The notes beneath the pieces were generated by a model. That model saw nothing but the letters and a program-made list of their open reading frames with translations, was not told the origin of the DNA and did no database searches. Positions 1-63,148 of a stretch of 64,000 nt of DNA are shown here, piece by piece. How positions within the stretch are numbered: the first letter of the stretch is position 1; each line of letters opens with the position of its first letter. Position numbers and translations under genes: made by a program. Where the stretch lies: contig OZ037768.1 in the NCBI GenBank assembly GCA_964035545.1, forward strand, positions 20,319,700 to 20,383,699, in the 5' to 3' direction. The stretch comes from Bugula neritina. Taxonomy: Eukaryota > Animalia > Bryozoa.

Positions 1-1
1 A

Positions 2-25151: not shown

Positions 25152-28100
25152 TCATTTATCTCCAACTCTCAACTTGTCCATCTCTGTTGATAATACTTTG
25201 TTGATCTTCAAGGCTTTGTCAGCCTCAGGCCCTCCGATATGTCTAATGGCTATTTCCGCTGCTTCCCTCACCTGAGAGATCGGGTCGTTCCGCCTACAAA
25301 TCATAAATGAAAATTTAGAACTAAACTTCAAGTAAGAAGAATAAAGATTATATTCAGCAGAGCAAGGGCTTATTCATACCAGCAACTGTTACATAAGAAG
25401 TCGCGTTAGGCAAAATCTCCAGCTCATATTATACAGTTTTCTCTAACATAACAGAGTCGTCTTACTAGTTAAGTGTGCAACATATGAATTGACAAGAGAA
25501 AGCACAGTACTTGATTATATTACGATCAGGAACCTTCACTTAGTTTTTATAGGAATAATGATTTAACTCCTTATGAAACAGGAACTTTAAACATTTGATG
25601 ACTAATGCATACTTCACATTGTCACCAAACTTGCCTAACAAAACTCGTTCTACAGCAGAATACTTTCATTAGAGTTGCTGTCTTAGATAAATTATGATGC
25701 TGGCAGTGCACAGTCATGAATAGTTTTACGGTTTACTAAAACTATTAAAATGACTTTTGGTCACATGATCTGAACAGACCTGTTAAAACCATTCAACGTT
25801 GTTAAGCTTCATTGGCTTGAATTCAGGTACTGCACACACAAAACTAGTGCGACTATTCTAATAACGATTGACCAGTGCAGCTAACAAAATCAAACCAGTT
25901 ATTAACATAGCAACTGCCTCTCAGCACTTGATAGTACAGACCAGATATCTGAAATCTTCTGGACGGATTTGGTTTCTCTCATCAGAGCTTCTGCTAGGCA
26001 AGCACTTTGCCTGACTAGTCTATCTTCATCACTGAGTAGTCGTACCAAACTGTCTTGCACCCTCTTTGTACCTTGACCTTTTAAATATAGAACAAACAGT
26101 ACATTGACTATACAATATATTACATAAAAAATCGCAGCAAATAATAGCAATTATTACACCAATAATATATATTATAATATTGATAATAATAGTATGTTAA
26201 CTCACCGGCCTTTCCTAGGCCAATAGCTGCAACAGCTCGTATATTAGGATCCTCATCTGTTGTGAGGTCACAGAGAGAGCAGATTACTGAGGGTGTCTGA
26301 AACCTCCCTGTGCAGCAGAAAACAGTTTACTTTAGGATCACAGTCTAATAGCACTTTAATAGCAATGTAGTAGTAGCCTAATAATATTCTAATAGCAATC
26401 TACTAGCAATCTAATAACAATGTAGTGGCAGCCTAATAACAATCTAAGGAAAAATATAGATAATAACAGGATCCTAGAAAGAAATTTATTAGAACATTTT
26501 TTACCTTTTACAAAGTTATGCACATGCATGAGAAGATAACTTTCTAATATGATCAAGGTAGCCACGTTTCCAATGAAACATTTATTTTACAAACAATGTT
26601 TATACCAACATAACATATATAAACAACATTAGACGAGTCATGAGTGCTCACCAATATTCTGTATAGCTTGAAGACGAACTGAACTCTCCATGTTGAACAC
26701 TTCTCTAATGGCGAAGTAGCCAACTGTATAGTCACATAGGCAACTGTAACAGCACATAGACAACTGTAACAACACATAGACAACTGTAACAACACATAGA
26801 CAACTGTAACAACACATAGGCAACTGTAACAGCAAATAGTGCAATTGTAATTTGTAAGGCGAATTCTAAGGCAATGATTGAAAACTAATTCAATAAGTGT
26901 GAGACTTCTAGACAGTAATTGTCTGCTTGTTATGCTTACAATAATATTATGTTGATACATGGAGCTATCTCAACAGAGAAGACAACTCTACGCTATGATC
27001 AAAGTCTCATTAAGGCGATAGTATTTTTGTGTTATCTTGTTAGTGAAATGGTTGACAATGAAGGACGAGAAGAGTGACATTTCTGTAAAATTGTCTCCCC
27101 ATTATTACTCAAAGTAATTACTAGTTATTAATTTGTAAAGTCGTCCAAACTTTTAAAAACCAACTATAAAAAAGACACTTTTATTCACTAAACTTTACAA
27201 TGGTATGTTCAATGCAGATGCTAAAAAGTGCAATCCTACATAACAATTACAGATTTTCAAAGTACGTCAAAAAGTCTTTTAGCAACTCACTTGAAGAAAT
27301 GGTCAGCCAGACATTCTGTATCAGATTCCTGCTTACCGCAGAAGGCGTCGTACGTTGACCTAGATATGCACGACTTCATGTCAAATATGTCCGTCTCCAT
27401 CAGCTTCATCAACATGTCTGCACCTTGCTGAAGAACAAACATTATCAATATAATGAGAAAGCCTCTAGATGTGTCCTAGCAAGACAAATATGTGCTATAC
27501 AACTACGGTACCATTTAACAAGTGCATCTGAACAAATTGAACACGTGTAACAACGCAGTAATTACCTAACAAAGGCTTGCATAAAGGTGACAATATAAGT
27601 TCATATTATCATTTTATACTATTCTCTATATTATATTCGATATTATTGCTTTACATTTTTTACATCACTTTTATGCTACTGTCCTTGTTATTATTTTTAT
27701 ATAATTATTATTTTTATTTCATATTATTATTTTTATTGCTGTTTTTGTAATATTTTATATCATTACATCTTACAGTCTCAACAAATATAAATGTTGGAAG
27801 AATTTTATAAACAATGGAAGAGAATGAAAATCCAAATTTCTTGTGGATCAACGGTCAGCAAAATTTTAGGATAGAATCACAAAGTCTAAAAAAAAAGAAA
27901 CATTCAATGCGGAACATATAAATTGGTGCCGACTTCATACAGAGCTGAATAAATGCTGAGAGCTCAAACTCTAACCTGATGAGTGGTAGAAGTCATCAAA
28001 GGCTATGACTATGACAATTACAAAACACTGTTTCATAAAAGAAAAGCAGCAAAATAAATAGAACACTCATCCATTGCCAAACTTTATGAGGTCAACTATG

Positions 28101-31100
28101 AGAACACGCGTGATTTCTCAATATCTTAATGACATAAAAGTGAACTTGTGCAACAAGTTTTCCAACATCTAGTGTTATTTCATTTATATAGCCGAACGTA
28201 AGTTCAACTGTCCTTGATAGAGATTATTAGGCAACAGCGGCTGACATCACTAGACTACATGAGGTGAGGTTTGAGCAATCAGTACTACTGGATATTATTC
28301 ATATCTGTTGCTATACTATGTCTACACTCCTTACATCAGCAGCAGCAAACGTTAGTCACTGATGACGCTGACCAATAAAACGGTATTTTTATGTATAAAA
28401 AAACATGATGAAACAATATTTCCTTGTTTTGTTTTTTAGTCAAAAGGCCAACAGTTGCTCATTCACGTATATAATAATTCATAGGAAATGACAAAAGTAG
28501 TATAAAATAGACCAGCTTGTCTTACATTGAGAAAACGAGTGATTGAAACTGTAAAAAGAGTACATGGTCCTTAAGAGTAACTGAGTACATGTGAACTCGT
28601 AATAGCTAAATGTATTGGAGGGAAAAATCTTATTGAATTTCACAACATATCAGACTTGAGGATACTAGATTAGATCAACAGGAAATGAGGTCACGCACAG
28701 TACACTACACTTCACGAATTCCAAAGAAAACCTTTTTACAGATCAACAACTGCAGTTGTTTGCATGTGCAGAACTGCTTTTGCATAACATTAATTTGAAT
28801 ATTACACCATTTCTAGCTAACAACACCTGAGCATTGCATAATGTGCTTGGCATGATGCAATGCTAGCTGTGTCATGATAATGCACTGAGTACTAAGAAAT
28901 GCAGCACATTCGTGTTTACATCTAGTAAGTTTGTAACATCTGTTGAAAGTTTCAAGGCTTGGCATCAAAATGAATACTTAATGAAGAGGAAATGAAGCTC
29001 TAACTTGCTTCTATTAGTCAAAATTCCTCTTGACAGATGGTAGCAGGTTGATAACAAGCACTCTGCTATGAGGGAAGTAAACATTGCAAAGTAGCTTATA
29101 TTAATATACAATTGAGTCATGTTTAAAAAATTTTCCTGCATTCAAATAACAATCTTTGCACAATAAAATACCAGAAAAAAAACCGGAAAAACATTGATAA
29201 TAATAGTACATCACACCATATCTATCATTGGAATGTATTCCACCAACTAGCAGCTGCAGTCAACTAAATAATCGTGGTTATAGCAGCAGCAACAGGTAGA
29301 ATAATTGATCCAACAACCAACGGAATTGATTTTACATTATTACATTAACCCTGTGACAGATTAGCTAGATGTGACACATTAGGTAGGTGTGACACATTAG
29401 CTAGGTGAGACATTAGATAGGTGTGACACATTACAGGTGTGATACATTAGGCAGATGTGACACATTAGATAGGTGTGATACATTAGATAGGTGTGACACA
29501 TTAGATAGGTGTGACACATTATGTAGGTGTGACACATTAGATAGGTGTGACACATTATGTAAGCGTGACACATTAGGTAGGTGTGACACATTAGGTAGAT
29601 GTGACACATTAGATAGGTGTGACACATTAGATAGGTGTTACACATTATGTAGGTGTGACACATTATGTAGGTGTGACACATTAGATAAGTGTGACACATT
29701 AGATAGGTGTGACACATTATGAGGTATCAGCTAACTGAGCATCTAGTATACAATATTATAGCATGATGTACCCTGAAAGAAAGTCATGATATACCTTTCC
29801 GAAGCTAAGCTCCAGAGTCTCATTGTAGTCAACATAGAAGGTTCTGGCAAATGTTATCCAGTCAACCTCTAAATGTGCTCCCCAGTGGCGATCCCAGAAG
29901 TCTAGAATGTTCCGCTTGTATTGAGGTGAGCCGACAGCAAAGTCTTTGGACTCGGATCTCTTCACACTGCACTGGCGGTTGAAGTTATATTGAAACTTGT
30001 CGATGTCTACGCCGTGAAAATCAGCACTAAAATATGAACTTATCAGTTATTATTTTGTTGTGGTTTTCACCTTATATGACTGTTTATAAAAAAAAGTTAA
30101 CCAAATACTATCAGATGTAGCAGCCTGAAATGCTTTACCCAAGAGTCTGGGGCAAATAGGTAACAAATAAAATTCAAAGTGACTCTAAAGCATCAAAGAT
30201 CAGTAGTCTAAAGTCTCAACAATGGGAAGACTCATATATGCAACAACACTGCCAGTAGCAATGACAGCATAGTAGTAATAGCTAAAATATAGCTATTTTT
30301 AGAATGTGAAATATGTTTATTGATAACCGAGATAGAGGGCACCTGTTCATCGTATATTGTTATTTACAATAGGGTACCTGTGACAGGTGTCATATTCCTG
30401 CAAAGCTTGAGTTACTTCCTCAAGGAACCTCTCTAGTTTCTGTGGATATTCTTCATCTTTTACAAAGAAAATCCAATTGATTTTTGCTAGTGTCAAAAGC
30501 CTAAAATATTAAGTCTACATTTGAGGTGATGTAACATTAACCATGTGTTGCTGTCATTTTTTATAACTTTAAAAGACACTTTAACATTGGTTTGATTCAA
30601 CAACCACATATATAGGTAAATTATTCATCAAAAACAAATTAGGCCTCGTAAGTGACATGGAAACTTTGGTAGTCTTGTATCAGTGAGACTTGCAAAATCA
30701 CATTGCAAAAGTATGTTGAAATGCTAAAAGGTATAACCCCTTTTCAACCTTTATCAGATAACAGCAAATTATATAAAAACCAACTAAACGTGATACTAGC
30801 ACAATAGTTTATCATTAGAAGTCATGTCCAAATCTACTGTTTTCAATCAAAATACTTCACAGTAAGATCCTGAGATCATAGAAGCAAAAAATACAGTATT
30901 TTTCAGATTCGTGGGCACCCATAGTACATCACGAGACTACTTACATGGCGCTGTCCATGTGTTTGGATACGTCTGGGTAGTACTCCCTCCCAACAGGAAT
31001 GATGATGGAGTTGGTAATGTAGGCTAAAGCAACACTATCTCTAATCGTTTGCTGATTCACGCATTCAGCCGACATAACCACGATGAAGACCTGTTTGATA

Positions 31101-32418
31101 GAACAGAATAAAATAGTCCACAACTTTTGAAAAAAGTTGAAACCTACTCAGCTCTAAAAGCTTAAGCAGGTACAGCTTGCTGGTATAGCAGCATGAATTA
31201 GGTGACCAATAAAAATTGAGATACTAACAAATTCACCAACCATCTTGTTGGTAACTGGGTCATTTTACTTAATTTAGTACACACTGGAAATCTCCAGTTT
31301 TTAGCTATTTTTCACAACTTAACTGTTTATTAACATGGTTTTTTGCCCAAAACTAGTAAAATATCAATAAATACACCTAAATAATCAAGGTTCTTTTTAA
31401 TTTTGCTTGATTTTCTATGCTTTTTCCTAATTATTCAGCTATTTTCGATTGCGGACCTTTACTAAAATACCATAACGATCCGCAATCCAAATTAGCTAAA
31501 TAAATAGAAAAAACATGGGAAATCAAGCAAAATTGAAAAGAACCTTGATCGTTTAGGTGTATTTATTGATATTTTACTAGTTTTGAGCAAAAACCCATGT
31601 TCATTAGCAGTTAAATTGTGATAAATAGCTAAAAACTGGAGATTTCCAGTGTGTACTAAATTAAGTAAAATGACCCAAGTTCTACACTCAAGTTTCGAGA
31701 ATCGTTCAATAGACTGGTTTTACTATCATAGAGTTCCAGAGAGTGGAGGCAATGAGTAGTGACGCAACCAACCTTAGAATCTACTATAGCCCTAGTAACT
31801 TCCTCTATACTGCTATCTTCAACGGGGTACCACACATCAAACTGGTCTTTGAGAGATTCTGAACAATAAAGTTTAGCGACTATTTTTACATAGCAGCATG
31901 CTATTAACCACAGTTGCAATTTAATATGAAACCTGGTGCAGCAGAAGTCTATGATAATCTAAATTATTACAATTTATTTTATACACAAGCAAAGCATCTA
32001 CACAGCGAGCTTCAGCTTACTAAAATTAAAAGACTAAAATATTTCCTAAACAAATTTGAACAACTTTTACTAAACTTTTATTTATTTTTAATCTGTACCA
32101 AAATGTCTAACATTAGAGCAAACACAAGCTAAACATGGCAATAAATTAAAGTAGAATTAGAATTACCTGTGTCAATAAATATACAACAATACAAAAACAA
32201 ACTTAAACGTATATTTGCAAGTTTTCCCACAACTACCTTTAAAGTTGTTTTAAAATTGATAATGACATTTTAAATAAATATTTTACAACTATAAAAATCT
32301 TTTGAAATGATACAGTACCTGCTAGTTTGTTTCCAAACCCTTTATCACCGTTACAAAACGTTAGCATGATATCACACACTCTCCCAGCTTGGTTTGTATC
32401 TTCTAGAGCCAGTGCCAT
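25152..32418 (-). CDS. TIR / EF-hand-like / HEAT protein A (TIR lacks catalytic Glu); exons 32418-32319, 31858-31773, 31090-30945, 30500-30378, 30026-29795, 27427-27291, 26743-26652, 26307-26206, 26077-25942, 25293-25152 (431 aa; may extend upstream)
   Basis: Ten exons splice into one 1296-nt stop-free frame. Aligns end to end with protein B (DIMLTF/DIMISY, AIVDSK/AIIDSK, VALAYI/LALAYI, FWDRHWG/FWDRNFG, EVFNMESSVRL/EVFNMDSSVRL, WRNDPISQVREAA/WRNDYISSVRDAA). HEAT motifs DEDPNIRAVAAIGLG and DEDRLVRQSACLA. Confidence 0.85.
26721..26835 (-). repeat. 20-bp tandem repeat spanning a splice acceptor of gene A
   Basis: Unit tctatgtgttgttacagttg on the - strand, about 6 copies, each containing a tacag acceptor-like site. 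Confidence 0.85.
29350..29720. repeat. 18-bp intronic minisatellite (gtgtgacacattagatag)n
   Basis: About 20 copies; source of the repetitive MCHTYL/RCDTLD ORFs. Confidence 0.95.
31254..31680. mobile_element. Foldback/MITE palindrome with ~200-bp arms
   Basis: 31254-31457 is a close reverse complement of 31478-31680, with a ~20-bp spacer. Confidence 0.85.
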
Positions 32419-32515
32419 GTTTCGTCGACTTCCAACTGTTGATAACAAAACTGATTTTAGTTAAAGTGTTTGGCACAAAATTAACTTCTATAATTATAAA
32501 TGCATCACATATAAT

Positions 32516-32740
32516 GGACAGCAGCCGTGGTCTAAGGGTTAGATCATTTGCCTAGTAAACACGAAGTCATGAGTTCGAGCCCAGACAAAGGCCATTGGTG
32601 ATGTTAGGAAGAACATCCAGTCATAATTGCTCCTGTGTCAAGTATGAATAAGTCCTTAGCCCTATTTAACAAAAATCCTTTCCATCAGGGGTTTCTCACA
32701 GGTTTGGGGACTATAAACCTGCGTGAGCTTTTTATATAAT
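32516..32740 (+). mobile_element. tRNA(Thr)-derived SINE, longer copy
   Basis: Same head and core as 8822-8925; AT-rich tail near 32730. Confidence 0.75.
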
Positions 32741-34124
32741 AAATATATCAACACACGGAGGCCATTGAAACTTCAAGAACACAATTTATTGAATAAGTGT
32801 CTAAAAAGACGTTTGCAATTAGTTCTTGTTGAGACTAATAGAAGTGTAAATAATGACCAGAAATAAAAAAATACTAAAGATTATTTTAAAGTAATGTTAC
32901 TTCCATTGTTTACCTGACAATGAACTACAAATAAAAGATATTATTGATTAATCAACAATTTTTACACACTTATTATAATCACTTGACTAATATAAAGCTT
33001 TTTTCAACTGTTTCCCAGTTTATTTAAATTAATGACTACTCTAAATATCTGCACCCGAAGTGTATAACTATAATAATAAGGATGCTGAAGGTACATTAAT
33101 AAAAATAACATAGTAAAAAATGAGGATCAAAATCTAAATTTTCAAAAACTCAAGTTGAGGTGTTTTGGATCAAATCTCTTGATTCCATAACCAACTTGAT
33201 TGAACTTGAAGAATTGCTGACACATTACATTGATTTTGCAGCATTAAATTATTCACAGATATCTTGACTATCAACTGAATACAACTTGAATACAACCCAA
33301 GCATATTGGGTTTATAATGAATTTTCTTAATACATGTTTCGAATTAAGTCATGATGATGGCTCACTAGTTGATGACGCTTTTGTGCAGCTCAGTGTCTGC
33401 AGCGATGTAGAACTGATACTAATTATTGCTGATTTTTATTGCCTTATGAAACCCTGAAGTTGTATTTAGCTAATAGCCAAGATGTGTAAAAAAATTATTA
33501 CTGCATAAATGTAACGTGTCAGGAATTTTTTAAAGCTACTGTTAGAAGCAAGCAAGTATATTCAAAATAATTCTAATCGACTCAGGCTATTGCTTGACTT
33601 GACTTGTACCTAATTTTTTTAATTTCAGCAATGACTGATTTCAAGTACATTAGCTATTGACTCAATAGGCCTAGCTGATAGAGCGAATCATTGACTTAAT
33701 TTTGACTAAACATATAAGACTAAAAGTGGCTTACAGTTACCAAGTCCAAAATTTACAAAACGACTAATAGGCCTACTTTTACTAACACTATTAGTAGTAT
33801 TACCATTATCACTAGCTGATAATCATAATAGTAATAATAATTATCAATTTTTATAGTTTTATAATGAAGACTAATACTCCGTTATTAATTATTACTAATA
33901 GTATTACTAGTAGTAATAGTAATACTTCATTATTTATACTCATACTGTAATCATAATGATCATGAGAAACGACATTCATATCTAATTATATATTCATACT
34001 TATAACCGAGTTTATATTCATACTGAGATAAATTATAACCTAATTACTCCAAGACTAAAGTTAGTGTGATAACTTAAGATACTGAATAATATATTCAATT
34101 TGACATTTGATGCATATTCATACT

Positions 34125-36860
34125 CTTTCACTATTGCATGCTATTACCGTAGACCCTGTATAAAACAAGTAGAAGATATAGTAAATTGGTATTATGATCA
34201 AACCAATCCGAACATTGTTATGGTTGGGGATTTTAACCTACCTGACATTGACTGGAATGATAGTAGCAGGCCTGTACTTAAAACAACTAGAGAAACTAAC
34301 TTGCACCAATTGTTCGTAGATTTTATAATTTCGAATAATCTTTCTCAGGCTATCAATAAACCTACTCACGACAAAGGTAATACGCTTGATCTAGTTGTTA
34401 CAAATGTAACTACCACTAACCCCCGAGTTGAGTCATCCTGCTCTGACCATTTTATTATCAATTTCAATGTGTTGGCGGATAATGTTATTAAAAGGACAGC
34501 ATCCCTAACCAAACCAAAACCATATTGGCAGTTTGAAAAGGCAGACATAACGAACATCACCGTGGACTGTTACTCCCTACATTGTAAAATCACCTCAGAT
34601 ATCTCTAAGAAATGTAGCGCTGAACAGTTATGGCATAATCTCAAATCTGGAATACTTCAGGTAGCCCATTCCAATATCCCATACAAATTTAGAAAGAAAA
34701 AATCAAAACTCTGGATATCCCAAGAAACTAAAAGTGAGATCAGAAAAAGAAAACACCTCCACCTAGCTTGCCTTAACGATCGCACCCCGCACAACATTTT
34801 AAAACATGCCACCCAGTCCCGGTACTGCAAGAAATTGTGTAACAGGGACTATAATATTTATATAAACAAACACATATGCAATACATTAGAGCAGGGTGAT
34901 TCAAAACCTCTTTATCGGTTCATAGCAAGTAAAAAGGGCAGCTCAAATACTGTACGCCAACTAGACAACATCCCCCCCTAACAACAATACTGCTATAGCT
35001 GAATCTTTTGCGGACTCCTTTGCTTCTGTGTTTTCTATTGGTGATGGTAATATCCCTCCCTGCATTCCACCTCAAACTATATCATCTCCTATACAATTTG
35101 ATCCTCGGGGAGTCCTAACACAGCTCACCAAACTCGATCCACGAAAAGGTGCTGGCCCAGATGAGCTTTCTCCTGCACTTCTAAAATATCTTGCACATTA
35201 TATATATGAGCCCCTGACAAAAGTTTTTCAGTACTTTTACGATACATCTCAGACACCACAAGACTGGAAAACAGCAAACATTGTACCGATCTTCAAGAAA
35301 GGAAGTCGTACAGACCCGCTGAATTACAGGCCAATATCACTCACTTCTATCATATCCAAAATCTTCGAGCATATCGTATCACATAATATCAACTGTTTCC
35401 TCGAATCAAATGACCTGTTTTACCCACACCAACATGGTTTCAGGACAAATCATGGCTGCGATACTCAGTTGTTGAATACAGTGAGTGAATTTATAGATTT
35501 TTTTGACGAAATGATACCGGTTGATCTCGCTGTCTTGGATTTTTCAAAGGCCTTTGACGTTGTGTCGCACCATAAACTACAGGTTAAACTGCTAAATATC
35601 GGAATAGCTGATAAAACTGTCAAATGGATTTTTTCATGGCTTCAGAACCGTCTTCTTTCAGTCTGTGTCAACAACGTCAAATCGGCCACTAGACATGTGA
35701 CCTCAGGAGTGCCCCAAGGCAGTGTATTAGGACCATTGTTATTTAATGTGTACATAAATGACATGCACTCTGCGGTAGCCAACAGCAAGCTTAAACTATA
35801 TGCAGATGATTCCTTGTTGTACAAACCAATCACAACACCTGCTGATTCTAGTTTATTTCAGAATGACTTAGACCATCTTATAACTTGGGCAGACAGTTCT
35901 CAGATGAAGTTCAATATAAATAAATGTGAGCATATGACAATTCAACGCTCCACTGTAAATCCTCTAGTGTCTCAATACAGCATGAATAATGACCCCTTAC
36001 AATGTGTTGACAAAGTATTATACCTTGGTGTCACGATTGATAATAAACTGTCATTCGATCAACATATAATAAACATTTGCTCAAAAGCTAATAAATTATT
36101 ACACATGCTGATGCGCTGTCTAAAAAAGGCTAAAAGTAAAACCAGAGCCATAGCTTATAAAACAGTCTGTCGCCCTATACTAGAATTTGCGACCCACACC
36201 TGGTCTCCATTTAAATTGAAAAACATCAACATCATAGAAGGTATAAATAGAAAAGCCTTCAGGTGGACATTCTGTAAGAGAAAACGAAATCATATAACTG
36301 AGCTCATGACAAATTCTAATTGGGATAGCCTTGCACAAAGACGTGACAATGCAGACCAAAAAATGTACTTTCGTATGCTTTCTGGTAGTGCCGCTATCGA
36401 CCAAGACCGGTTCTCCCTTCATTTTGCAGAGTCTCACAATACCAGACATGGTGCTATTAAGGGCAATATCAATACCAAAACTGCCAAACATTCATATAAA
36501 CATCGCATCCATAAACTTTTCTAATGATTCTAGCTGCTTTGCCTAACTGATTATAAGCACTTAACACCGACTCTGCTTTATATCATCTGAAGCTGTGCGG
36601 TGTATATCTATTTATTTATATTCTTTTTTTTTTTTTTTTTTTTTTCTTTTTCTTTTTTTCTTTCTCTCCTGGCAGTAGCTAGCTATTGATCTTTGAATCG
36701 AAGCATAATTAACTTTATTCTTATCTCGTAGACAAAATAGTTTTCTTCCTTACTACTGATAATCTAAACAATTGTTCATACACCACTGCATCTCGATAAA
36801 GGAGCCAAAGCGCTCCGAGTGAGATTAATTAGATGAGATGAGATGAGATGAGATGAGATA
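34125..36860 (+). mobile_element. 5'-truncated non-LTR retrotransposon (CR1/L2-like): partial APE endonuclease + reverse transcriptase, one frameshift
   Basis: GDFNLPDIDW, GNTLDLV, SDH (endonuclease); NYRPISLTS, QHGFR, LDFSKAFD, GVPQGSVLGPLLF, YADD, YLGVTID (RT). The two ORFs fuse if the C7 run at 34972-34978 were C6. 3' UTR ends in (AGATG)n at 36831-36859. Confidence 0.95.
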
Positions 36861-38169: not shown

Positions 38170-38174
<5 letters not shown>

Positions 38175-38268
<94 letters not shown>

Positions 38269-38300
38269 TGTGTGTGTGTTGTGTGTGGTGTGTGTGTGTG
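38175..38300. repeat. (TG)n microsatellite
   Basis: Direct inspection. Confidence 0.95.
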
Positions 38301-41300
38301 TATTGTATCTGTAGCTTGTAAGAAATAATTGTTGAAGTTTTAACCGCAGTTTGTTAAAATATGAGAGCAGCTAGAGAAAAGAAGAAAAGAATATATCCCC
38401 ACATGATGTAAACCTACTATAAATATATTTCAAATAGTAAAGCCTAAAAACTTCAGAGCCAACCAACATGGTGTTGTTGCTGCACACAAAACAGCTTAAT
38501 TTATACACAAACCATCATTCTAATTCCCAAAATCATAATCAGGTTAGCTAACTCATCGAAGAATTGAAAGAGTATCCTTTCAACTCAAAAATTATACAAA
38601 TATATTCCAAATATCTTTTGGGTTGTCATTTCAACAAAGCAAAAACTTAAAATTCTACAAGGATTATTATAGTTTTAAGCTAAAAAGTTGGGTGTAAAGT
38701 TACGTTTATACCTCTGTTGAATCGTGAAGGTATAAAGGCAACTTAAGAGTTTTGAAATGTGTTAGCAAACTTTCATTAAAGCTATTTATGTTTAACTATG
38801 CAACTTTATTATTTATTGGTATATATTGGTATATATTCTAGGCTTGTGCAGGGCTCCCAGAACTTATTTCAAATTATAGACGTTTTTACACTAATTATAA
38901 TCAGATGCACATTTTAGAATTAGACTTTGTCCACATTTTGAGTGTAGCATAGATTGTAACTTTTACCTCAATCTAGAATTGTGATTAAAAGCATATATTG
39001 CTTAAGTATGAGTTTAATAAATACAATTTTTATTCACTTTGCTATGCTTGGTGCTGTAATCTGATAGAAAACTAATAATTTTGTTGAGGTATGCCATTAC
39101 TGGCTTTAGAAATAAAATAGGCACTGAGTTAGTAGGCTACATATAGTTATCTATTTTTGTGAGAATGGGTGCACTAAAGCAACCATTAAAACATTTTAAA
39201 TAATATTGCTACTGAAACCATTACCATGTGTAAGACTTATCAGCAACATGAGATCATTGTTAATCCATTGGTTAAATTCTCAGCCAATTACAAGGCATCA
39301 TTAAACAATACTGCGTTATAATACTTTAGTAATTTAACAGGGTTATAGATATTTTAATTAGAATCATAATAATATTATAAATGCATAATAATAATATATA
39401 CTACTCACTCTAGAGATTATAGGTCACCCTTCTTGCTGTTTCACTTTCAATAAAGGCAGCGTGCTATAAGGCAATGTGAATGTGAAACTACGGTCACCTT
39501 TCAATCTGCTTGATGATTGGTTGATGCTTTGATGGGGGAAAACGTGTTGAAGTCGCCTACTACTCAACTACTTGTTGATTGCGAGCAATTGACAATGAGC
39601 AAAATCAAAATATGATAAGGATATTAAAATAGCTGACAAGTGAGGTAGGTGGGACTACGATTTAGTCCATTTTGATTGATCACCTTACTGATAGTGATAA
39701 ATATTTGTTGTTGGTATCGTAGTGATAGTAAGGGTTTATAGGGGAAAGTCACTGCATCAGTTTCAGTGTGCATTCAGATTCAGGTTGACACGGTCAGGGT
39801 CTCTCTTACTCTTGCACCAACAGTTGCAAGTTTCAATGCTTCTATAAATATTATATAAACATAACAAAAAATAGACGCTATAAGAGTATATAAGACTCAC
39901 GCCGAACTTTGCTCTTCAGATTTAATCTCATTGTCATTGCTATTGGACGATTTGTGAATGCCATTGGCATTGGACTTAGAGTTAGATTCAGTCTATTAGT
40001 AGTAACATTACACTTTACAGCGCTACTACTACTATTACTTTCGCTAGTATTAGTATTACTACTAGCATAGTAATTCAGCGAAATTGAAAGTGGCTGGAGC
40101 CACCACAAACTACCAAATAACTTAAACTTAAAGGATATTGTCCGTTGTTAATAATACGACAGTATTAAAAGACTATATCTGATTTTAATTTCACGCTGTA
40201 TTAATCTTGGAAGATTTAGATTTAGGCTGACCGTAGTAATACTAATTGCTAATAGTAATACCCACGACCTAGCACTTACAGTTTTCTTTACTTGGTCAAC
40301 AGCCTTATCTGAGTATTTAAAACTGCTGCATCCTGATGACAATGACATTGTCTAGCGCTGAAAAGTTATCTAGTACATGCCCTTGGAGATTTCCTCCCGT
40401 TTCTGAAGATCTAATGCAGAGTTACTCTACAGCATATCCCAGTAACAACAATAACTTAGGAGCTGTAAATTCTCATTCTGCTAAAGTTGAACACGAAGCT
40501 TTATTATTTTCCCTTTCACTTGAGGAGGCAGTAGAGGGTGAGTTGAATTCACAACGACAATATAACTGTAACTTTTGAAAATGATAGCTAGGCTATATTG
40601 ATATTTAATATACTTTGCCATTGGCATTTGAAAGTTGTAGTATTTTATTTCTAACAAGTTGCTTTAACTAGGTGGTCATAAAAAATCATGTTATACTTTG
40701 AATACTGCCAAGATCACTACTTTATAGATTCCTTAGAATGATTTTGAAATGTTGCAATTTCGATTGTAACGTACATACCTACATTTGTAATAACCAAAGA
40801 ATGTTGTATCACTGTTAGACTTTAGTACTTTTAGTGGCTCCAAGTGCAATTAATTATAATCCTCAGAATATTTTTCAGCAGTTGCTTTATTTTTGATATC
40901 AAGTTTTGGTGCCTCTTGGTACTAGTCTACCATACTATAGTGCCAGCATTGTGCTGTCACAACAGAAAACTAACATTAAACCAGGTTCTTTTCTAAAACT
41001 TTTACTCTTGAGTTTTCTTTGAGTTTGTGGGCCAAATCCAAGCTATACTTCCTTGTGTTGACTCAAATAATATGCTTTTTCAGTAGAATGGTCGAAATAA
41101 AAGTGGGTTAATCTATCCAATATGGTAGAAAAATATCCAAAAATTTTGTTAGTTTTTTTACTAAATCTTAGAGTTTTCCTTTTAGTTTATGATTTACCAG
41201 CTAAAAATTCTGTTTATTGTCTAAGCTTATATAGTTCCTAAACATAGGGATATTTATTAATCTATATTTTTAAAATTTTAAAACTATCCCAAAGTTCAAT

Positions 41301-43513
41301 TAAGATTGTAACTTTCTGTCCAAAACTGGATCCTGTTCTATATACTTGTGAAGTTGGTTAAGAATTAAAAAAAACTTCTGCTTTGCCAAGGTTTGTAAAT
41401 ATTGGCTTAAAACTTGAATTTGATGCAACTGTCTTGAGCAAACACATTTTTGAACTAAATTTACCTGTTGAAATTAAACTGCATGAAAAAGTGGCTATCT
41501 TTTTACATGCTTCCAGTTGGATATTTTCACATTTTTAGAATATTTCTAATTTTAAAATGCATGTTTTGACATGATAGCCACCTTTATAGCCTTGTTGATG
41601 AGCTATAAACAATTTTACAACCTATATTATTTAAAGCATAACATTCTTTATCTCTCTTCAAACATACTTATAGAAAGCCAACTTTTGGTTGGCTTTGTTG
41701 ACTAGCAAGGGACTGACACAAGCGTGTTCAGCAAATAGTTTCACTCTGAAACTATAATCAAGGAGAAAAATTGGAATCTTTTTCTAACTAAACTGCTGGT
41801 TTCTATTTAATCCAAATGTAAACCCAACATAATATACCAAAATCTGGTCCACTGTTCTTAATTTGCTAAAACAAAGAACAAAGCTCTACCTATTGTATAT
41901 TAACTATATCCTATTAGCAAAACTACCCATCATCTAAAGTCTAAACTTAAGACTGCACACTACAGATTAGTAGTAATAGTTCATCAACTGTAAACTCTTG
42001 TGATATAAGTTTTAGCAACCCCAGTCATTAAGTAGTTGCAAGTATTTTACTCAAGTTTCTGGGGGTTTTCACTGCTAAGAACTTAGTTCCTAGTGAAACT
42101 ACCATGCAACTTGATTATCAGTTAATAAAACTCTCGTCTTGTAGCGATTGCATAATAGGTGCTACCTGTTATGTCCAGCCAATTTTCCTGGAATTTCACC
42201 AAAAAAAATGTTGATGGGAGATAAATTATATGGTTGAGACTGTTGTAGCTGTTAGATAAACTGTCAGAGTACTGTGGTTTCAAACAAATTGGCAGAGGGA
42301 CATCATAAATAAACATTTCAAAATGCACACTCAGCTTCTACTGAGAGAGATTCTGCACGCTGAGTCTGATATTCAACACCTATGCTGGCATCCTGCATAG
42401 ATATGTTTTGAATAGATTGCCTAGGGACCAAGTTCTTGCTCAACTCTCATTGTCAACTTCAGTATGCCATCACTCAGTCACTGTTTAGCCAATAAATCAT
42501 ATGATTAGCGTTATAGCTTCACTGTTTGCAACGGACATGAGAGGCGCTCGTCATAAACTATCTCATAGTGAAAGAGGTAGCTAGTTATTCTCGTCGCGTT
42601 ATGGAGTGTTTGCCATCATATCTGCTCAGTAAATGTAGAGCTTTTACTTCTTGTCGCTTCTAGCTGTTCGGTATATTTCTTGGTCAACAAATAGGGGCGT
42701 TTACTGAAAGGTAATTTATACAAGTTTCTCTTCATTTATTGCTAGTTGTAAGGTTATACCAAGCTAGTAGGTCAGCTGTTAATTTAGTGACTTTCCTAAT
42801 AAACTCGGGCTATCATGTTTCAGTTTTAGTGTTTATAGCCAGTTTTCAACACTGGGCTACACAGCTACATTCTCTCTAGTTGTTAACTCAATAATTATGA
42901 CAGCAGAATATGATAGCAAGTAGCTTCAAGGCTTTGATTAGCATAACTTAATTGCACTGTCAAGAAATTGCTAAATTGCACATTGTCCGGGTAGACATAT
43001 TGCCACAGTGAGATTATTTTTTTATCTATGAACATCTGGCATCTAAAAAGATGGTATATCTAGTGCAAGATAACAACATGCTATAGTAGTAAACAGCTCA
43101 TATGAATGGCAATGTCTATACTGCATATATTGAAAATCTTAGGCAATATGAATTAATAGCCACCACCACATTGTACTAATTCACATTGCATGTATGTGGT
43201 ATTCATCTCTCTGTATAATATATAGTGTTAGTGTGGTCATTTATTTTTATTATAAGCTCATGATCTTATAATGTTAAATAGATTAATAGATTTATTCTAA
43301 ATGTGTTGGTAACAGTTGAGGGAGTTGAAGGAATATTTGGCATGAATTATGAAAATATATGAAAACCAGACTTTCTGTCTGCATGACGCCATTTGTATAG
43401 TGCAGAGTTTAACGACAGAGGGAGGGAGTCCGTGATTGCTGCCAGTGTTTGTCGCTGTCAGTGATGACAGATATTCTCATGGTGTTTTAGGTAAGGCAGA
43501 CAGGTCAGCCGAC

Positions 43514-46500
43514 ATGGGAAACATCAGTTCTGGGAAAACAAAGGATCACAAGCCCCCTACACCCTGCTACCCCCTTACCTCTGACAAGAAGAGTGTACAG
43601 CACAAGAACGATCTCAACTCCAAGCAGCCCTCTCAGCCTACCCACCACACACCCACTTATATTGACACTAAGAACGGCAGCATTCAGTCAGTCAAGCCCG
43701 TCAGCGACAAGTTACCTGGCGTCAGCGTACAGAAGATGGTTGCTGACTCTCCCACTCAGGTCCCCGGTGACCAGTCCAAGAGTTCTCCTCAGGGAGTCAG
43801 CATAGATGGCGTGAAGCTGACTTTAGACGTGAACAATAGTCGACCATCCAGTAGGTCCAACACTCCTCTCCAGCCCAGAAAGAATGGCTCGAATGGTTCC
43901 TATTTGGCCCAGTCCCATACTGAGCACAAGGGCTCTAGCAGTAGTCTCAAGGACTCCCAAGCTAAAGATATTATGATCAGTTACAGTCATCTGGATAAAG
44001 AGATTATGTTGAAGCTCAAAGGTTTGGCTCTACTACACAATTTATATTCTAGAATCTAAAATCTGGATAGTAAGACTTAAACATCTTATTCTGCCCACCC
44101 AGTGTTACTGAGAACTGCTCTCAGGAGAATTGTTGTATAGAATTTGTGTGAGCATTGAATAAAATTGACTAGTCTAACTGCTACTAATATTTCACTTGAA
44201 TTGCTATAATGTAGCCTAGCTTATTGATTAGTAACATGTAACACTCGGTGCCGCACAACTCAATTATCACTCGCTGCTGCAGTATACTTGTACTCCTTAC
44301 TTTTACTTCCAATGATGGATATACTCCATTTAAACATTCATCATTTTGATATATGGCACTGTGCCACTTTGGCACTGTTTAGTTTAGGCTTACCTGTTAA
44401 CCAGTTGTCACAAATCACCTATTGTCAGTCTACTTGAGTCAGGGCAGTAGAATTTCACAAAACTTGCAGTAACTCGATCCTTATTTCTTCCAAAACTAAG
44501 CAGGTGTTCTAAAAATGCTCTCTTTCTAATAGTTTACATGTGATTGTTGCAGATGCACTGGAACATCACAACATATCTGTTTGGGTGGACGTGGTCGGCC
44601 TCAATGCTGGTGTTAACTTTCTCAACAAAATAGGCCAAGCTATCATTGACTCAAAGGTAGGTACACAGGCTATCATTAACTCAAAGGTGGGTACACAGGC
44701 TATCATTAACTCAAAGGTGGGTACACAGGCTATCATTGACTCAAAGGTAGGTGCACAGACTATCATTGACTCAAAGGTAGGTACACAGGCTATCATTGAC
44801 TCAAAGGTAGGTACACAGGGTATCATTGACTCAAAGGTGGGTACACAGGCTATCATTAACTCAAAGGTGGGTACACAGGCTATCATTAACTCAAAGGTGG
44901 GTACACAGGCTATCATTAACTCAAAGGTGGGTACACAGGGTATCATTGACTCAAAGGTAGGGATCGTTCTATAAGCAGCTCAGTGTTAGAGTCTGGGGGT
45001 TTAAGTTGGAACTTGGAGCCCCCAACTCCAAACTTGATAGTCCAAACTATTGCACTCAGTTATCCCCAACTCAGAGCTGCTCATATAATAATTCCAAAGG
45101 TGAAAGTTGTAGGTGATGATGGAGCAAATAGTATCACTACAGAATAAGTTTAGCAGATTAGCCCTAAACTAAGTTGTTCTGGTAGCGTAGTAGATAATCT
45201 AAAAGAGTTGGTGATGCAAGAGTTCAAACCCCACTCTCAGCATGTTATTTTCAGTATATATCATGTAGCAAAGGGTAATATCTAAGGAAACAGCTAACTG
45301 CAGCACACCAGTTAGGGCAGCTGGAGTCTATACTGGCTTATTTATTCCTGTACTCTTCACGGAGTCGATGGAAAGGTTATTAGTGCTGAAGGGAAGGTGT
45401 GCTATTCTTGGCACTAAATTAGCTCTTAAAATACACTGGTTGTGAACAAACAATACGTAAATATGAAGACATTAGAGCAGTGGACATTGTTACTATTGTA
45501 TTGGCTCAATTACCTTCTGAATTGAATTCGGAAAGAAGGAGTTCCGTTTGTCAAATGACTCATAATGTTTACATATGATAATTGTGTCACATGGTGATAG
45601 ATAGGGATTAGAAGCCCCCCCCCACATCAGATGATCTTCTGCTATCAATTTTCAGGCACCAGCTCTATATAGAGTATAGTGGGTTTCAACAATGAATTAA
45701 CATCTTCAATGAATATTATGAGATTGCATTTAATTTATACCTGTCGGCCATATTAAAAGCATTGCAAAATTTTAGTAAAAAGTATTAAGTGTTTCTTGTT
45801 CCACCACTCATATTGGGTTTTCGAAATAGGTGTGGCCAACACCCACTCCAACCCAAGTAGTATATATCTAGTATAAGAAATAGGGCAATGTCAAGGAGTC
45901 TTGGATAACATATGCCAGGCTTGGCTAAGATAAATTGGAATTCTTTAAACATTTTTTGTTTTTGAAAATGTGATGCAGTGAAATCAAATTGTCATCTAGA
46001 TTCTATTAACACGACATCATAGCTTACTTAGAGCAGTAAAACATTTCCACAGCCTATAATATTATGTAACTCAAGTTAGCAGTGTTATTAGAACAAACAT
46101 TCTACAGCAGATAATGATCTTATCTGCCATTGAACAATACTTAATATCAGAAAGTAAAACTTTAGTTAACCTAGCATTACTCTACTCTTTCATCATGGTT
46201 GTGCAACATGTCCTATAATATCCTTTAATATAATATAATGCAGCCATTATTGCATGTAGGCCATAATTATTTCTCCATGCTTAGTTAAGAGTTCAAACTT
46301 TGACAATCTCAAAAAGTGCCTTGTTTCAACAATTAGTTGTGATTCCACATTCAGTTTGGGCAACACACCAACCCCAACCAAAAGACACCATCCAATATGT
46401 GAAATTAAGCAACTCGAAATGTCTGTTTTACAAAATGTATCTTGTGTTTCTTGGAAATAAGATAATGTTGTTAGGGTGAACCACAAACCCCCTTCCGCAA

Positions 46501-49500
46501 AAGTTGGAGTTCAACAACATAGCACCTAAATTACACAACTAAGTTATCTCAGTGGCGTTGGTGACTTTTCAAATAGATCATTCAGTTTGAGGCATTCCTA
46601 AGAGATGATTCAGAGGGTGCTATCGCCCATTTCCTTTTGCAACATCTTTGGAAACTAGCATACACGCGTAGCCATATTACACTGTATACGTGAGTTGTAG
46701 GGTAGTTCACTTGATGAAACAGCAGCAAAAAGAAACTTGGTGATGCAGACCTTGTGTGATGCAATGTTGCCCAATAAATGACCCAGTAACCTGCCATCCA
46801 TGGTGAAGAGTGTGTAATGATTTGTGTACAGTTTTGGTGGGGGTTGATTGACCCCATTTAGTAGGACAATATTTCATATTTATGTATGGTATTTTGGCAT
46901 TAAAGTTGGTCATATTTTCTGATGGGAGTCTGTAGCCTTGGCGACTCGTTTCCGGCAACTGAAGCATAATTATGTTAATTTGTGAAATCATTGTAGATGT
47001 TCATAACTTTGCTGACAGAAAGGACCGTAGCCTCCAAGTTCTGCCAAGATGAGTTGGCGCTGGCATATATTTCCAATAAACCCATATTTCCTGTTAGTCT
47101 ACAGCCTCAGTCTGAAATCTTTCCCAAAATTCCCACCGGAATGTGAGTATGGCACTGTTCTTACCCCCCCCCCCCCACCTGTGTCCTAGTAAAGTTTGTT
47201 TTTTTTTGTCAGGTGAACATTTAATCAACTAGTAAATAAAAGACTAAGTACCACCTTGAGACAGTCATCAATAGTTGAGGTTTCAAATATCATATACAAG
47301 GTTATTCATCTCTTCCATTACCTTTCTAGTAGCCCTTTCATTCACCAGTAAATAAACTGTTAAAATTTAGTTATTTGTTTATTGGGTTTGTTTGCCTACT
47401 GAATGAATCATATTTTACTAATTTCATATCCACATTTTTTCATCACATTTTCAGAGATTATAAATAAATTATAAAGCTCTTAGATGAAACATTCTATTGA
47501 CCTCGTGTCAAGTGGTAACACATAATTTTAGTTTGGGAGACATGCTAATTGAATCCTGACATGTAATCTTCAGCTAATAGTCTTAGCATTAAGTACCCAG
47601 CTATGACATAGTGTAGTATAAGTATCTTTTCAGGAATTCTCATCACAAATTTTGTTAGTTGCCACAGTTTTCTTTGAATAAGAAATCTTGAATACCTGTA
47701 TTGTGTAACGGTTTTGCTTTTATATTTAAATCTTTAGGGCTGTAAAACCTCTTTTTCACCAGTGCTCAACTTGTGATGTGAACTTTCACTGTGCAGGAAT
47801 CATTCTGGTGTTTTCATATAACAAATAATAATGTCAATTCTTCTTATTGTATTAGTTTACTGAGAAAGGTTACTATTCAACTGTTATCTCCAGTTTCATT
47901 GCCAGGTTTTAATGTCACAGTTAAAATGCATGTTTATATAACTTGGTTTCCATGTTACTCTGTAGCTCTGTAGTCCTACATGCCTCTAAGTAGGTTCAAA
48001 ACTTAAGCCTTTCTTTAATGACTCCAAAACACAAGCAAATTCTCTCTAGTTATCTATCAACGTAGTAGTGCTACTTTCATTAGAGGAAATGGTGATATTT
48101 GTGGAAGTTTGTGTAACTTATTCACTGATACTGCGTACCACTCGGTGTTGGTGGTAAGATGACGCAATCTCTTCTCTCACAGGAAGTTGCAGCTGGCCAG
48201 GTTCGAGTGGACTCAGATCTCAGTAGAGAATTTCAATGAAGACATACAAGTGTTGCTGAAGAAGCTGCAGGCATGTCTGGACGACATGAGATCAGAAGGC
48301 AAAGACGGTAAGTCGCTTGTACCAGTAACCGAGTCTCTCTGAAAGTTGTAACCCTTGGAACTGGTCACCTGTATGTTCCTAGTGTTTATCTAGAGCTTAA
48401 GATCTGGTCTTGTTGTTGTTTCCGTTGTGTTTTATCACAACTATGTTGCTCTGTGATTTCTCTTGATTTCGTAAACTCTGATTATCTCTATTTGTCAAAT
48501 TATAAAACTTCAGTGAGAATCAACTTGTTATACGGTTGCAGACGTACCGGATCTATCATCACCTCCAGCGGAGGACAAACTGCCTTTCAGGAAAACCCTG
48601 AAGAGGAAGGTGACCAGGCCCAAACTGTACCAGTACAATCGGTCACTCTCCAGGTGCAACTCCATTATTGAGCAGACAGAAGATATTGACGCCCAGGCCG
48701 AGTTTTGGGACAGAAACTTTGGAGATCTCAATGCTGTGCAGTTTGATAGGTGAGGCATTTGGCCCGACACAAATAGTCTTGTTTAGCTAGGTTCATGTGG
48801 CTACACTTTGCTCACATTGTTTGTGTGTAAGTGGATCTACTATAATCTTATACTAACAAGTCCAACTCTAAACATGTGTTTCTATCGTCACAGATACGGA
48901 AACTTAGTTGTTTCACTGCGATTTGACGTGGAGTAGCCTATATCTTTTTTAGTTTAAATTTGTGAGCCAGAAATCCGTTTAACTGCTTGGGCTGAAAAAA
49001 AAACAGATTCTCCCTCAATCTTGAGCGGAAAAATAATAGTCACAATGTAGCATATTTTGAACTGTGCTGTTTTTTTTGTAGTTTTGAAGCCTCTTTTACA
49101 AAAGATTACGAGCGTCAGCTGAACATGACTTATGCGCTGTCAGACAGGGAATGGTTTATTGATATCTTGAAGCGGGAGCTGGAAGTTGAGGAAGATGGAT
49201 TTATTCACAAAGAGAAGTATAAAGGTCAGTATATAATATGACTAAAGCCTCACTAGGACATAGGGTAGTAAATGAGGAAGTGATTGTTGATACAAGTTTT
49301 AGTGTGTGAGATTAGATTCAGCTGACATGATCAGTTAAGTCATAAATACATCATTTAACATTAAATGATATCTAAATTATGCCTTTATCAGTGTACTTCT
49401 GTCATCTTAGATTGTAAAGTGACTTTTTCAATTGTTCAAACACTTTACTTGACTGAAATTGACAATTTTCCTGTTTTCTAAAGACACAAAAATTACTAGG

Positions 49501-51200
49501 TGAATTTCAGTGCTTGGTGTTCAAGACAGTTACTAATATACAGAATAGGATTCAGATTTCATGCCGCTAAGGACCATGGCTAAGTTTTGAGTTTCTTGAG
49601 ATCAAACAAAGAGAACTCATTTATTATGCATAGTTTGATTAGGTTGACTAAATAGAATGTCAATTCTGATTAATTTATGTTGTCACCAAAGGCTTAACCA
49701 AATTAATTTTGCCTGCTCATATGTCTATTTAGGCTGTCAAAAACATTGTTGCATTGCAAGTATTAATTCCAGGAAAGTTGTTGTTGGCTGCAACTATGCA
49801 ACTTGCAGGTTATTTAAATATTTTGGTTAATAAGTGAACTTTGCCTAAAGCCACGTTGTCTGCTCTCACTGAGCTAGGACTGTCTCCCGCCTGATACCCT
49901 CACAGACACATTTTCAAGAGCTCATCGCTATTGCATGTTTTTGTTTCCATATCTTTAACCTGCGAGATTATTAAAATGCGGTAGTTAACCTCTGTCTGCT
50001 GTTGTGTAGAATTCATAACTGAAGAACTCGATGGCACCTTGAAGGAACAGCCCATACTCAAATGCGTCAATGATTTGGCTGTAGAAAACTACACAATGAA
50101 GGAAGTATTCAACATGGATTCTTCAGTTAGACTGGATGCTATTAATAACTTAGGTATGTGCTTTCAGTGAAAAGGTTTATTTCCATTTTCTACATTGTGC
50201 AAGCAAGTTAATGACTTTATCAACACTGATGATTCGATTCTATCAACACCATCATCTTATACAAACTAGACGTCTATTTCATGTGGACTCATTGCATTTA
50301 TTTACAGCAAAGTTTGGTAGTGTGGCAGTGGTAGAGGCTTTGTTAGACCTGCTAGACGACCAAGAGCATGATGTCAGAGCTACTGCTTGCATTTCATTGG
50401 CTAAATCGAAAGCTGGTGATCTGAGTATGAAGATAGATCGACTAATGAGATGTCTCCGAGATAGCGACCGCTTTGTTAGAGAAAGTGCGTGTGTTGCTCT
50501 CGGCTATTTGAGAGCAGAAGAAGCAGTTCCCGTGTTGCTTCAAATCTGGTAACTTTCCTTTTCTGACTCTGATAACAATATCAATTCTTTTTGATAAAAC
50601 AAATATTTTTTGCTGTAGCAGATAAAGTCTGCTCTAAATTAGCAATACTGTCGAATCTTCCTTCATATATGCACTAGTTGGAAGTCACTCACACATTATT
50701 GGTCTGATTCATTCTTATAAACTTTTGATCATGTTATTATCACGCCAGAACATTTGATATATTACAATTTAGTAATTAATTCATGTTTTACAGGAGAAAT
50801 GACTACATATCTAGTGTGAGAGATGCAGCAGAGTTGGCGCTAAAGCAAATTGGTGGCAGTGAAGTCAACAGAGCCATGGAAATGACCAATGTGCTTACAG
50901 CGGAGATTGGTGAACTTATCAAGGTTTGCTTTTATGCATAACATTAGAAATTCGCTCTCCGATAAATTGGCATTCTACTTCCTGTTTAAGCACCGCCACT
51001 TCCTGTTTACATATCATTACATATAAAATATTTCTTTATACATCTTTTAGGTGCTCACTGGTAAAGGAACTTCTCCTAAAAACCCTTTAAGATCAAAGAA
51101 TTGGACACCACTCAATGCTAACACTCTACCAGCCAACTTTGGTACTTCTACTGGTGCGATAAGTTTGATGTCAGCCCCCAACAGAAACACTATAGAATAG
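43514..51200 (+). CDS. Putatively myristoylated TIR / EF-hand-like / HEAT protein B (catalytic Glu present); exons 43514-44021, 44553-44656, 46997-47142, 48183-48307, 48542-48749, 49082-49224, 50010-50153, 50308-50548, 50794-50923, 51051-51200 (632 aa)
   Basis: Ten exons give a 1899-nt stop-free frame. MGNISSGK start; TIR_2 pattern DIMISYSHLD...SVWVD...LNAG...IGQAIIDSKMFITLLT...SKFCQDELALAY...KPIFPV (Glu 47051-47053); HEAT repeats LLDDQEHDVRATACISL, LRDSDRFVRESACVALG. Probable 5'UTR exon ending at 42710 (gaaag|gtaatt). Confidence 0.9.
44636..44962 (+). repeat. 30-bp tandem repeat containing the splice donor of gene B exon 44553-44656 (11 in-frame donors)
   Basis: Unit gctatcatt(g/a)actcaaag|gt(a/g)ggtacacag; translates (VGTQAIIDSK)n without stops. 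Confidence 0.95.
44961..45095. mobile_element. Short MITE abutting the 30-bp repeat array
   Basis: ggatcgttctataagcagctc ... gagctgctcatataataattcc; similar to 24161-24288. Confidence 0.65.

Positions 51201-53211: not shown

Positions 53212-63148
<9,937 letters not shown>

Follow-up and report, generated by a model that had tools for sequence, protein, structure and literature searches.

Apart from SARM1, TIR enzymes of animals are just beginning to be found, and how their off-state is kept is an open question. A 64-kb stretch of DNA from the bryozoan Bugula neritina (contig OZ037768.1; "the window" below means this whole stretch) raises the question in a compact form, as it carries head to head two paralogous genes of an invertebrate immune type, A and B, each encoding a TIR domain followed by HEAT repeats. 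Is B an enzyme kept in check by a disabled neighbour? The reading that we prefer, at a probability of slightly under one half, is that B is a likely enzyme processing nicotinamide adenine dinucleotide (NAD+) and A a likely non-catalytic partner, with a predicted co-assembly of A and B that holds off or gates B.

The two genes and their predicted NAD+ pockets

Gene A, 25152..32418, minus strand: 431 residues in 10 coding exons, ATG at 32418 (exon model and transcript contigs)
Gene A, coding exons 1-5, minus strand: 32418-32319, 31858-31773, 31090-30945, 30500-30378, 30026-29795
Gene A, coding exons 6-10, minus strand: 27427-27291, 26743-26652, 26307-26206, 26077-25942, 25293-25152
Gene A, parts from N to C terminus: TIR (eroded pocket), linker, EF-hand-like helical domain, HEAT repeats
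Gene A, BB-loop exon, 31773..31858, minus strand: 86 nucleotides, six residues fewer than in B, without the conserved Asp
Gene A, TIR exon, 30945..31090, minus strand: 146 nucleotides; codon 19 (31036-31034, AGT) is Ser at the catalytic-Glu position
Gene B, 43514..51200, plus strand: 632 residues in 10 coding exons, ATG at 43514 (exon model and transcript contigs)
Gene B, coding exons 1-5, plus strand: 43514-44021, 44553-44656, 46997-47142, 48183-48307, 48542-48749
Gene B, coding exons 6-10, plus strand: 49082-49224, 50010-50153, 50308-50548, 50794-50923, 51051-51200
Gene B, parts from N to C terminus: disordered Met-Gly N-terminus, TIR (full pocket), linker, EF-hand-like helical domain, HEAT repeats
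Gene B, BB-loop exon, 44553..44656, plus strand: 104 nucleotides
Gene B, TIR exon, 46997..47142, plus strand: 146 nucleotides; codon 19 (47051-47053, GAG) is Glu223

The exon models of A and B translate without stops and their introns are GT-AG, which agrees with the two intact, divergently transcribed paralogues of 10 coding exons each that a sequence-only reading of the window had described (ATGs at 32418, minus strand, and 43514, plus strand). The proteins are 28.7% identical over 435 residues (E 5e-58), and A is a full-length paralogue of B across the TIR, middle domain and HEAT part. Five introns are common to both genes by alignment column and phase, three in the TIR and two in the HEAT part, and four in each gene are not shared. 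The same reading had also noted five shared and several non-shared introns, an equally sized TIR exon and a BB-loop exon 18 nucleotides shorter in A, and all of these held; the Ser of A (31036) and the Glu of B (47051), which it had set against each other, fall in the same alignment column. No third TIR copy was found within the window.

Pfam found TIR_2 and HEAT_2 in every family member scanned (11 A and 49 B), and both were above cut-off in P0003 of Watersipora subatra, an A orthologue found via an A exon and 79% identical to A. The earlier description of the proteins as TIR-EF-HEAT therefore stood for its two ends, while the EF-hand-like fold of the middle domain rests on weak matches to Cbl_N2 (8/11 A and 10/49 B members; best E 1.4e-4) and CBL-B; Cbl_N2 gave no match when the exons of the window were scanned singly. 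Fold searches with whole-protein models of Watersipora A and B were filled by TIR and HEAT matches. The best structural match for both TIR models was the SARM1 TIR (P0003: Z 15.7, root-mean-square deviation 2.1, 124 aligned; B orthologue: Z 14.3, 2.4, 128 aligned), and the HEAT part of both was an alphaRep-like solenoid. The TIR, linker and middle domain of B are identical to those of P0082, a named Bugula neritina protein.

Four positions served as the pocket signature: the Ser/Ala that follows the Tyr of the first strand, the Asp of the BB loop, the aromatic residue three before the Glu, and the Glu itself. They were chosen by alignment to SARM1 and Cat1, guided also by what we take to be the roles of the SARM1 residues. 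Fragments (P0088, P0161, P0169, P0175), long-branch rows (P0157, P0162, P0194, P0199, P0212, P0215, P0216) and a Gln-bearing paralogue of mollusc type that derives from B (P0074, P0144) were left out. The complete signature was present in 26/26 B and 5/5 deep B-like proteins, and in 0/20 A, 0/7 sponge-type and 0/2 choanoflagellate-type proteins. The BB-loop span was 20 residues in all 26 B proteins and 12-26 residues in A. Glu223 of B aligns with the alpha-C motif Glu of Cat1, a bacterial TIR, and the solved TIRs nearest to B by sequence are enzymes (Cat1, E 9e-6; SARM1, E 0.006). The earlier view of B as the TIR-enzyme type is consistent with its full pocket signature. In a larger set, 74/77 B-side proteins carried Glu and 3/77 carried Gln.

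Eight matched A/B sets were used to compare identity by region. The pocket half of the TIR was 63% identical among B and 36% among A, with A lower in 28/28 pairs, which are not independent of each other. The second half of the TIR (41% in B vs 39% in A) and the middle domain (34% vs 37%) were near equal, and the HEAT part was at 60% vs 51%. Relaxation in the A TIR is confined to the catalytic surface, both types having kept the alphaD-alphaE side. The residue replacing Glu in A was Ser in the window, His in Watersipora, Gln in Lymnaea and Arg in P0167, and the Glu was lost at least three separate times (bryozoans, Lymnaea, P0167).

Two further groups have altered pockets. Sponge-type proteins were without Glu in 7/7 cases (P0095, P0009, P0011, P0013, P0017, P0019, P0028), one of them named, from Corticium; no named sponge B-type was among the retrieved relatives. 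A mollusc-type paralogue in or beside the B clade (P0074, P0068, P0076, P0144) has independently exchanged its Glu for Gln and no longer carries the Tyr-Ser motif, and is probably a second, younger pseudo-enzyme.

Age, linkage and expression of the two types

The family label ecTIR-DC 11 comes from the classification of Gerdol et al. 2017, as used by Kamm et al. 2019 (PMC6321704), who in supplement 1 apply it to Trichoplax TrispH2_006851. Its architecture, an N-terminal TIR with C-terminal Armadillo/HEAT, was found in both types. TrispH2_006851 (our P0137) groups with the B clade at 96 by the Shimodaira-Hasegawa-like approximate likelihood ratio test (SH-aLRT). By architecture and by orthology to this labelled protein, A and B can be assigned to the described ecTIR-DC 11 family. 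Full-length relatives came from annelids, molluscs, nemerteans, a brachiopod, hemichordates, echinoderms, lancelets, tunicates, acoels, Trichoplax, a sponge and a choanoflagellate; non-exhaustive searches gave no named match from vertebrates, arthropods, nematodes or cnidarians. In the choanoflagellate Salpingoeca urceolata (P0153, P0166) the whole architecture is present, with Asp in place of the Glu, so the family is older than animals.

In a tree of 28 rows, with SH-aLRT as its only support, A and B formed separate clades (97 and 96), each with protostomes, deuterostomes and acoel-type sequences, and the sponge-type proteins with eroded pockets sided with A (95). Approximately unbiased (AU) tests on 23 rows rejected a bryozoan-only clade of A and B (p-AU 3e-69) and a hemichordate-only one (p-AU 3e-45), and weakly rejected a bilaterian-only one (p-AU 0.018). 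Because TrispH2_006851 is B-type and the sponge-type proteins stand on the A side, the split goes back at least to the common ancestor of placozoans and bilaterians, and A and B are ancient subfamilies that separated before these two lineages parted. The root is unsure, with the choanoflagellate P0153 beside the A side in one tree and on the other side in another, and the bryozoan A branch is long.

Over 228 codons of the C-terminal half, A and the transcript L001 differed by 0.14 per non-synonymous site (pN) and 0.86 per synonymous site (pS, saturated). The coding differences listed between A and the contigs of a close relative were synonymous in 4/4 cases, and per-domain identity to the Watersipora orthologues was 78-85% for A and alike for B. 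Purifying selection on A is supported by the low pN and by the overall identity to its Watersipora orthologue. The sequence-only reading had proposed an old, maintained pair, and the clades spanning Bilateria, the AU test against a bryozoan-only origin and the constraint on A agree with it. A decaying or recent bryozoan duplicate is ruled out by that AU test and the selection on A, and an assembly artefact by the orthologues of both types in Watersipora. Separately, a bryozoan-like B gene on L003 (2331-3998) and L004 (4410-6077) has a single intron over the TIR-to-HEAT part, where the gene in the window has eight, through intron loss or as a retrocopy.

Linkage elsewhere was judged from sequence lengths and identifier numbers, orientation being read in this window only. 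Besides the window, both types were named in 10 species, and in 8/10 they lay on a sequence of the same length. Near-consecutive A and B identifiers were found in five species (a bryozoan, an annelid, a brachiopod and two hemichordates):

Ptychodera: XP_070573267-271 (A) then 272-273 (B), consecutive
Watersipora: 067932664-668 (B) and 670 (A), 2 apart
Owenia: CAH1801189 and 193, 4 apart
Glandiceps: LOC144449132 and 144, 12 LOC numbers apart
Lingula: LOC106162413 and 415, 2 LOC numbers apart on one 212-kb scaffold

In Branchiostoma lanceolatum, Tubulanus and Ostrea, A and B share a chromosome-scale sequence, with identifiers distant or unchecked. In Trichoplax H2, two genes labelled ecTIR-DC 11 carry the consecutive tags 006850 and 006851 in the available part of PMC6321704; of the two, 006851 alone was typed (B). 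Numbering by similarity was ruled out as the cause of adjacency, since close paralogues on one sequence of Gigantopelta are more than 21,000 LOC numbers apart; the same spacing means that distant LOC numbers do not prove distance. Numbering is not strictly positional, isoforms of Corticium being spaced by seven. A metagenome scan gave at least 11 loci, and among the loci listed none had both types, on flanks too short to show linkage. A and B types appear to be still neighbours in several phyla.

Transcript evidence consisted of contigs from four public runs (X2, X3, X4, X8), taken as RNA by library label or guess and derived from a close relative, mostly 90-99% alike. Contigs with joints across GT-AG introns show splicing; they cannot rank or time expression. 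Contigs bridged 9/9 coding introns in A and 9/9 in B (18/18 in total), each junction was present in at least three of the four runs, and both genes were spliced within the same four runs. Both genes drawn by the sequence-only reading are thus expressed and spliced. The acceptor of A exon 7 (start 26743), which sits within a tandem repeat, was confirmed by contigs. The 5' end of B has two forms:

Gene B, main first exon, about 39590..40537, plus strand: splices to 43491; joint in X2, X4 and X8
Gene B, alternative first exon, 42311..42710, plus strand: one run; with an in-frame stop before the splice, it would give the Met-Gly form

An in-frame ATG at 40336 in the main first exon would add 75 residues, so B can have 11 coding exons, and P0082 is annotated with this extension. 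The choice of first exon would toggle this extension against a free Met-Gly start and might alter membrane targeting; Watersipora B has N-terminal isoforms as well (626-692 residues). A 30-base tandem repeat (10.7 copies, 44639-44958, plus strand) copies the last part of B exon 2 and the donor site there, and contigs use the first donor. One X2 contig departs from gene A 3 bases upstream of the ATG (32422, minus strand), by an upstream exon or a strain difference; its ten-base loose end had 15 matches, with 13.7 expected.

A possible mechanism and its rivals

In the mechanism that we propose, B would often be tethered to the membrane through N-myristoylation of its Met-Gly terminus, a start that we take to be such a signal and that was present in 17/25 B vs 4/19 A proteins. 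The shared HEAT and EF-hand-like part would bind a trigger or drive self-association. TIR enzymes are expected to need TIR-TIR assembly, and A would co-assemble with B via the surfaces kept in both, namely the second TIR half, the middle domain and HEAT. Lacking a functional BB loop and pocket, A subunits would then poison or cap B assemblies. A trigger would rearrange the A-B complex and release B, whose output would be a signal of the cyclic ADP-ribose (cADPR) type or a loss of NAD+. We extend this, with somewhat less confidence again, to a paired animal TIR receptor predating the placozoan-bilaterian split, in which a linked enzyme B and pseudo-enzyme A would form one complex and A would restrain or gate an NAD+-derived signal. 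Such a receptor, based on HEAT repeats and retained by marine invertebrates and early chordates, would be convergent with the executor/sensor pairs of plants.

Several results weigh against the restraint of an enzyme B by A. The Glu at the catalytic position is kept in 16/20 A-type proteins, so that the division into Glu and non-Glu types, put forward earlier as a general rule, is lineage-specific. The sequence-only reading had itself named orthologues that both keep Glu as a refuting outcome, although none of the 20 A proteins retains the rest of the pocket. A is still conserved with Glu mostly kept, and the helix may have a role of its own. Glu also predicts activity poorly, as 12/61 Glu-bearing animal TIRs were active in the available part of bioRxiv 10.64898/2026.04.20.719644. 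HEAT identity is lower in A too, and part of the pocket effect is therefore a general rate. No additional sensor domain is present in A, and neither protein has a nucleotide-binding or LRR part. Between the A ATG and the B first exon lie about 7 kb that include a retroelement and simple repeats; no promoter common to A and B is mapped, and the A start site is unmapped. Identifiers of A and B are thousands apart in Ostrea and hundreds apart in Tubulanus, and the two types lie on different sequences in Octopus and on different scaffolds in Lymnaea. Signs of the linkage looked for in other animals are present in the eight species with a common sequence, five of them with near-consecutive identifiers, and absent in Octopus and Lymnaea. 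B proteins greatly outnumbered A proteins among those retrieved (77 against 10 in one set), and incomplete searches gave no named A-type from echinoderms or tunicates and, from the sole named sponge, the eroded type only. The excess of B and the groups lacking A suggest that each type may function alone, and tandem duplicates can stay linked without interaction.

The last points lead to a different account, which we consider unlikely although the nearest competitor: A and B would each descend independently from an ancient duplication, tandem or inverted, with B a likely enzyme and A a non-enzymatic adaptor or scaffold with other partners, their linkage being a leftover in slowly rearranging genomes. 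It fits the lost or loose linkage in molluscs and a nemertean, the recovery of B alone from many species, the lack of a mapped common promoter, and the non-catalytic adaptor TIRs that are common in animals (bioRxiv 10.64898/2026.04.20.719644, available part). Near-consecutive identifiers in a bryozoan, an annelid, a brachiopod, two hemichordates and probably a placozoan would be a long survival for an idle tandem, and the non-pocket surfaces remain alike between A and B; both points count against this account.

It is quite improbable that neither A nor B is a working NAD+ enzyme and that both are signalling adaptors, with the B pocket conserved for binding a ligand or partner. An adaptor role is proposed for ecTIR-DC proteins, as a hypothesis only (PMC6321704, available part), 49/61 Glu-bearing animal TIRs gave no product in a bacterial assay (bioRxiv 10.64898/2026.04.20.719644, available part), and some Glu-bearing human TIRs are inactive; yet all pocket positions and the BB-loop length are kept in 26/26 B, and the enzymes Cat1 and SARM1 are its nearest solved TIRs. 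Still less probable is that both subfamilies were enzymes that differed in chemistry or in the way they are activated, with the BB loop of a neighbour completing the A site in trans, and that only bryozoans and a few other lineages later lost the A Glu. The Glu kept in most A proteins, the first-strand Tyr/Phe kept in 16/20 of them and the long bryozoan A branch speak for it, whereas the separate losses of Glu in A, at least three, come on top of 7/7 sponge-type proteins, and no conserved substitute residue is found at the aromatic or Asp positions.

The interval and the flanks of the pair hold the following features:

LINE-type (long interspersed nuclear element) retroelement, 34073..36524, plus strand: endonuclease and reverse transcriptase frames; between A and B, outside the pair
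Roadblock/LC7 dynein light chain exon, 20818-21147, minus strand
Protein-kinase C-terminal exon, 55095-55367, minus strand
Exon of about 48 copies of a 12-base repeat, 7765-8505, minus strand: encodes a Pro-Thr-Thr-Lys mucin-like stalk

The frames of the LINE-type element are interrupted by a frameshift near 34970, and weak joints in X2 and X4 skip 33926-37051 around it, perhaps an empty site. The flanking genes are an ordinary housekeeping context with no TIR cluster.

Comparison with known systems

With ecTIR-DC 11, A and B share the TIR and Armadillo/HEAT architecture, TrispH2_006851 falling within the B clade. The available part of PMC6321704 gives ecTIR-DC 11 as an architecture label and does not remark on subfamilies, pocket erosion or linkage; the family-defining paper may note paralogues. 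We found no published account of two ecTIR-DC 11 subfamilies or of the A/B pair, in a search beyond whose reach lay most subscription papers, the family-defining one included. This unstudied family becomes a directly testable two-protein system, and scoring TIRs by Glu alone overlooks its whole eroded subfamily.

SARM1 and C. elegans TIR-1 resemble A and B in joining a TIR to an ARM/HEAT solenoid that could regulate it. In contrast to SARM1 (ARM-SAM-SAM-TIR), A and B have the TIR at the N-terminus and an EF-hand-like middle, and Pfam found no SAM family. SARM1 is a homo-oligomer and is not known to have a disabled paralogue. Trichoplax has a separate Sarm1-like gene (PMC6321704, available part). 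Orthology of A and B to SARM1 was rejected on the reversed domain order, the lack of a SAM family and this separate gene.

Glu-bearing invertebrate non-TLR TIRs that make cADPR or deplete NAD+ are described by Hurieva et al., who tested 154 TIRs (bioRxiv 10.64898/2026.04.20.719644). B resembles their catalytic animal non-TLR TIRs as a Glu-bearing invertebrate TIR, and the available part of their text does not mention HEAT, bryozoan, paralogue or heterodimer.

Plant paired TIR-NLRs, such as RPS4/RRS1 and CSA1/CHS3 (PMC13725568), offer a similar logic. In the available part of that source, the same erosion pattern is described for executor versus sensor TIRs, with Glu kept in some sensors. The likeness lies in head-to-head genes, read in this window only, and in a homogeneous enzymatic-type TIR with a partner of short or variable BB loop and optional Glu. 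Unlike the plant pairs, the bryozoan pair has no NB-ARC, LRR or integrated decoy, and it is single-copy and conserved across phyla where the plant pairs evolve fast; no NB-ARC or LRR family of Pfam was listed for the 11 A and 49 B members, whose TIR, linker, helical middle and HEAT cover the full length. We believe that this compact pair, single-copy and found across phyla, is a candidate for regulation through a linked paralogue that is a pseudo-enzyme; so far such a logic has been described in plants. By its sequence pattern and gene layout, it would work like a plant executor/sensor pair, but it is not an NLR.

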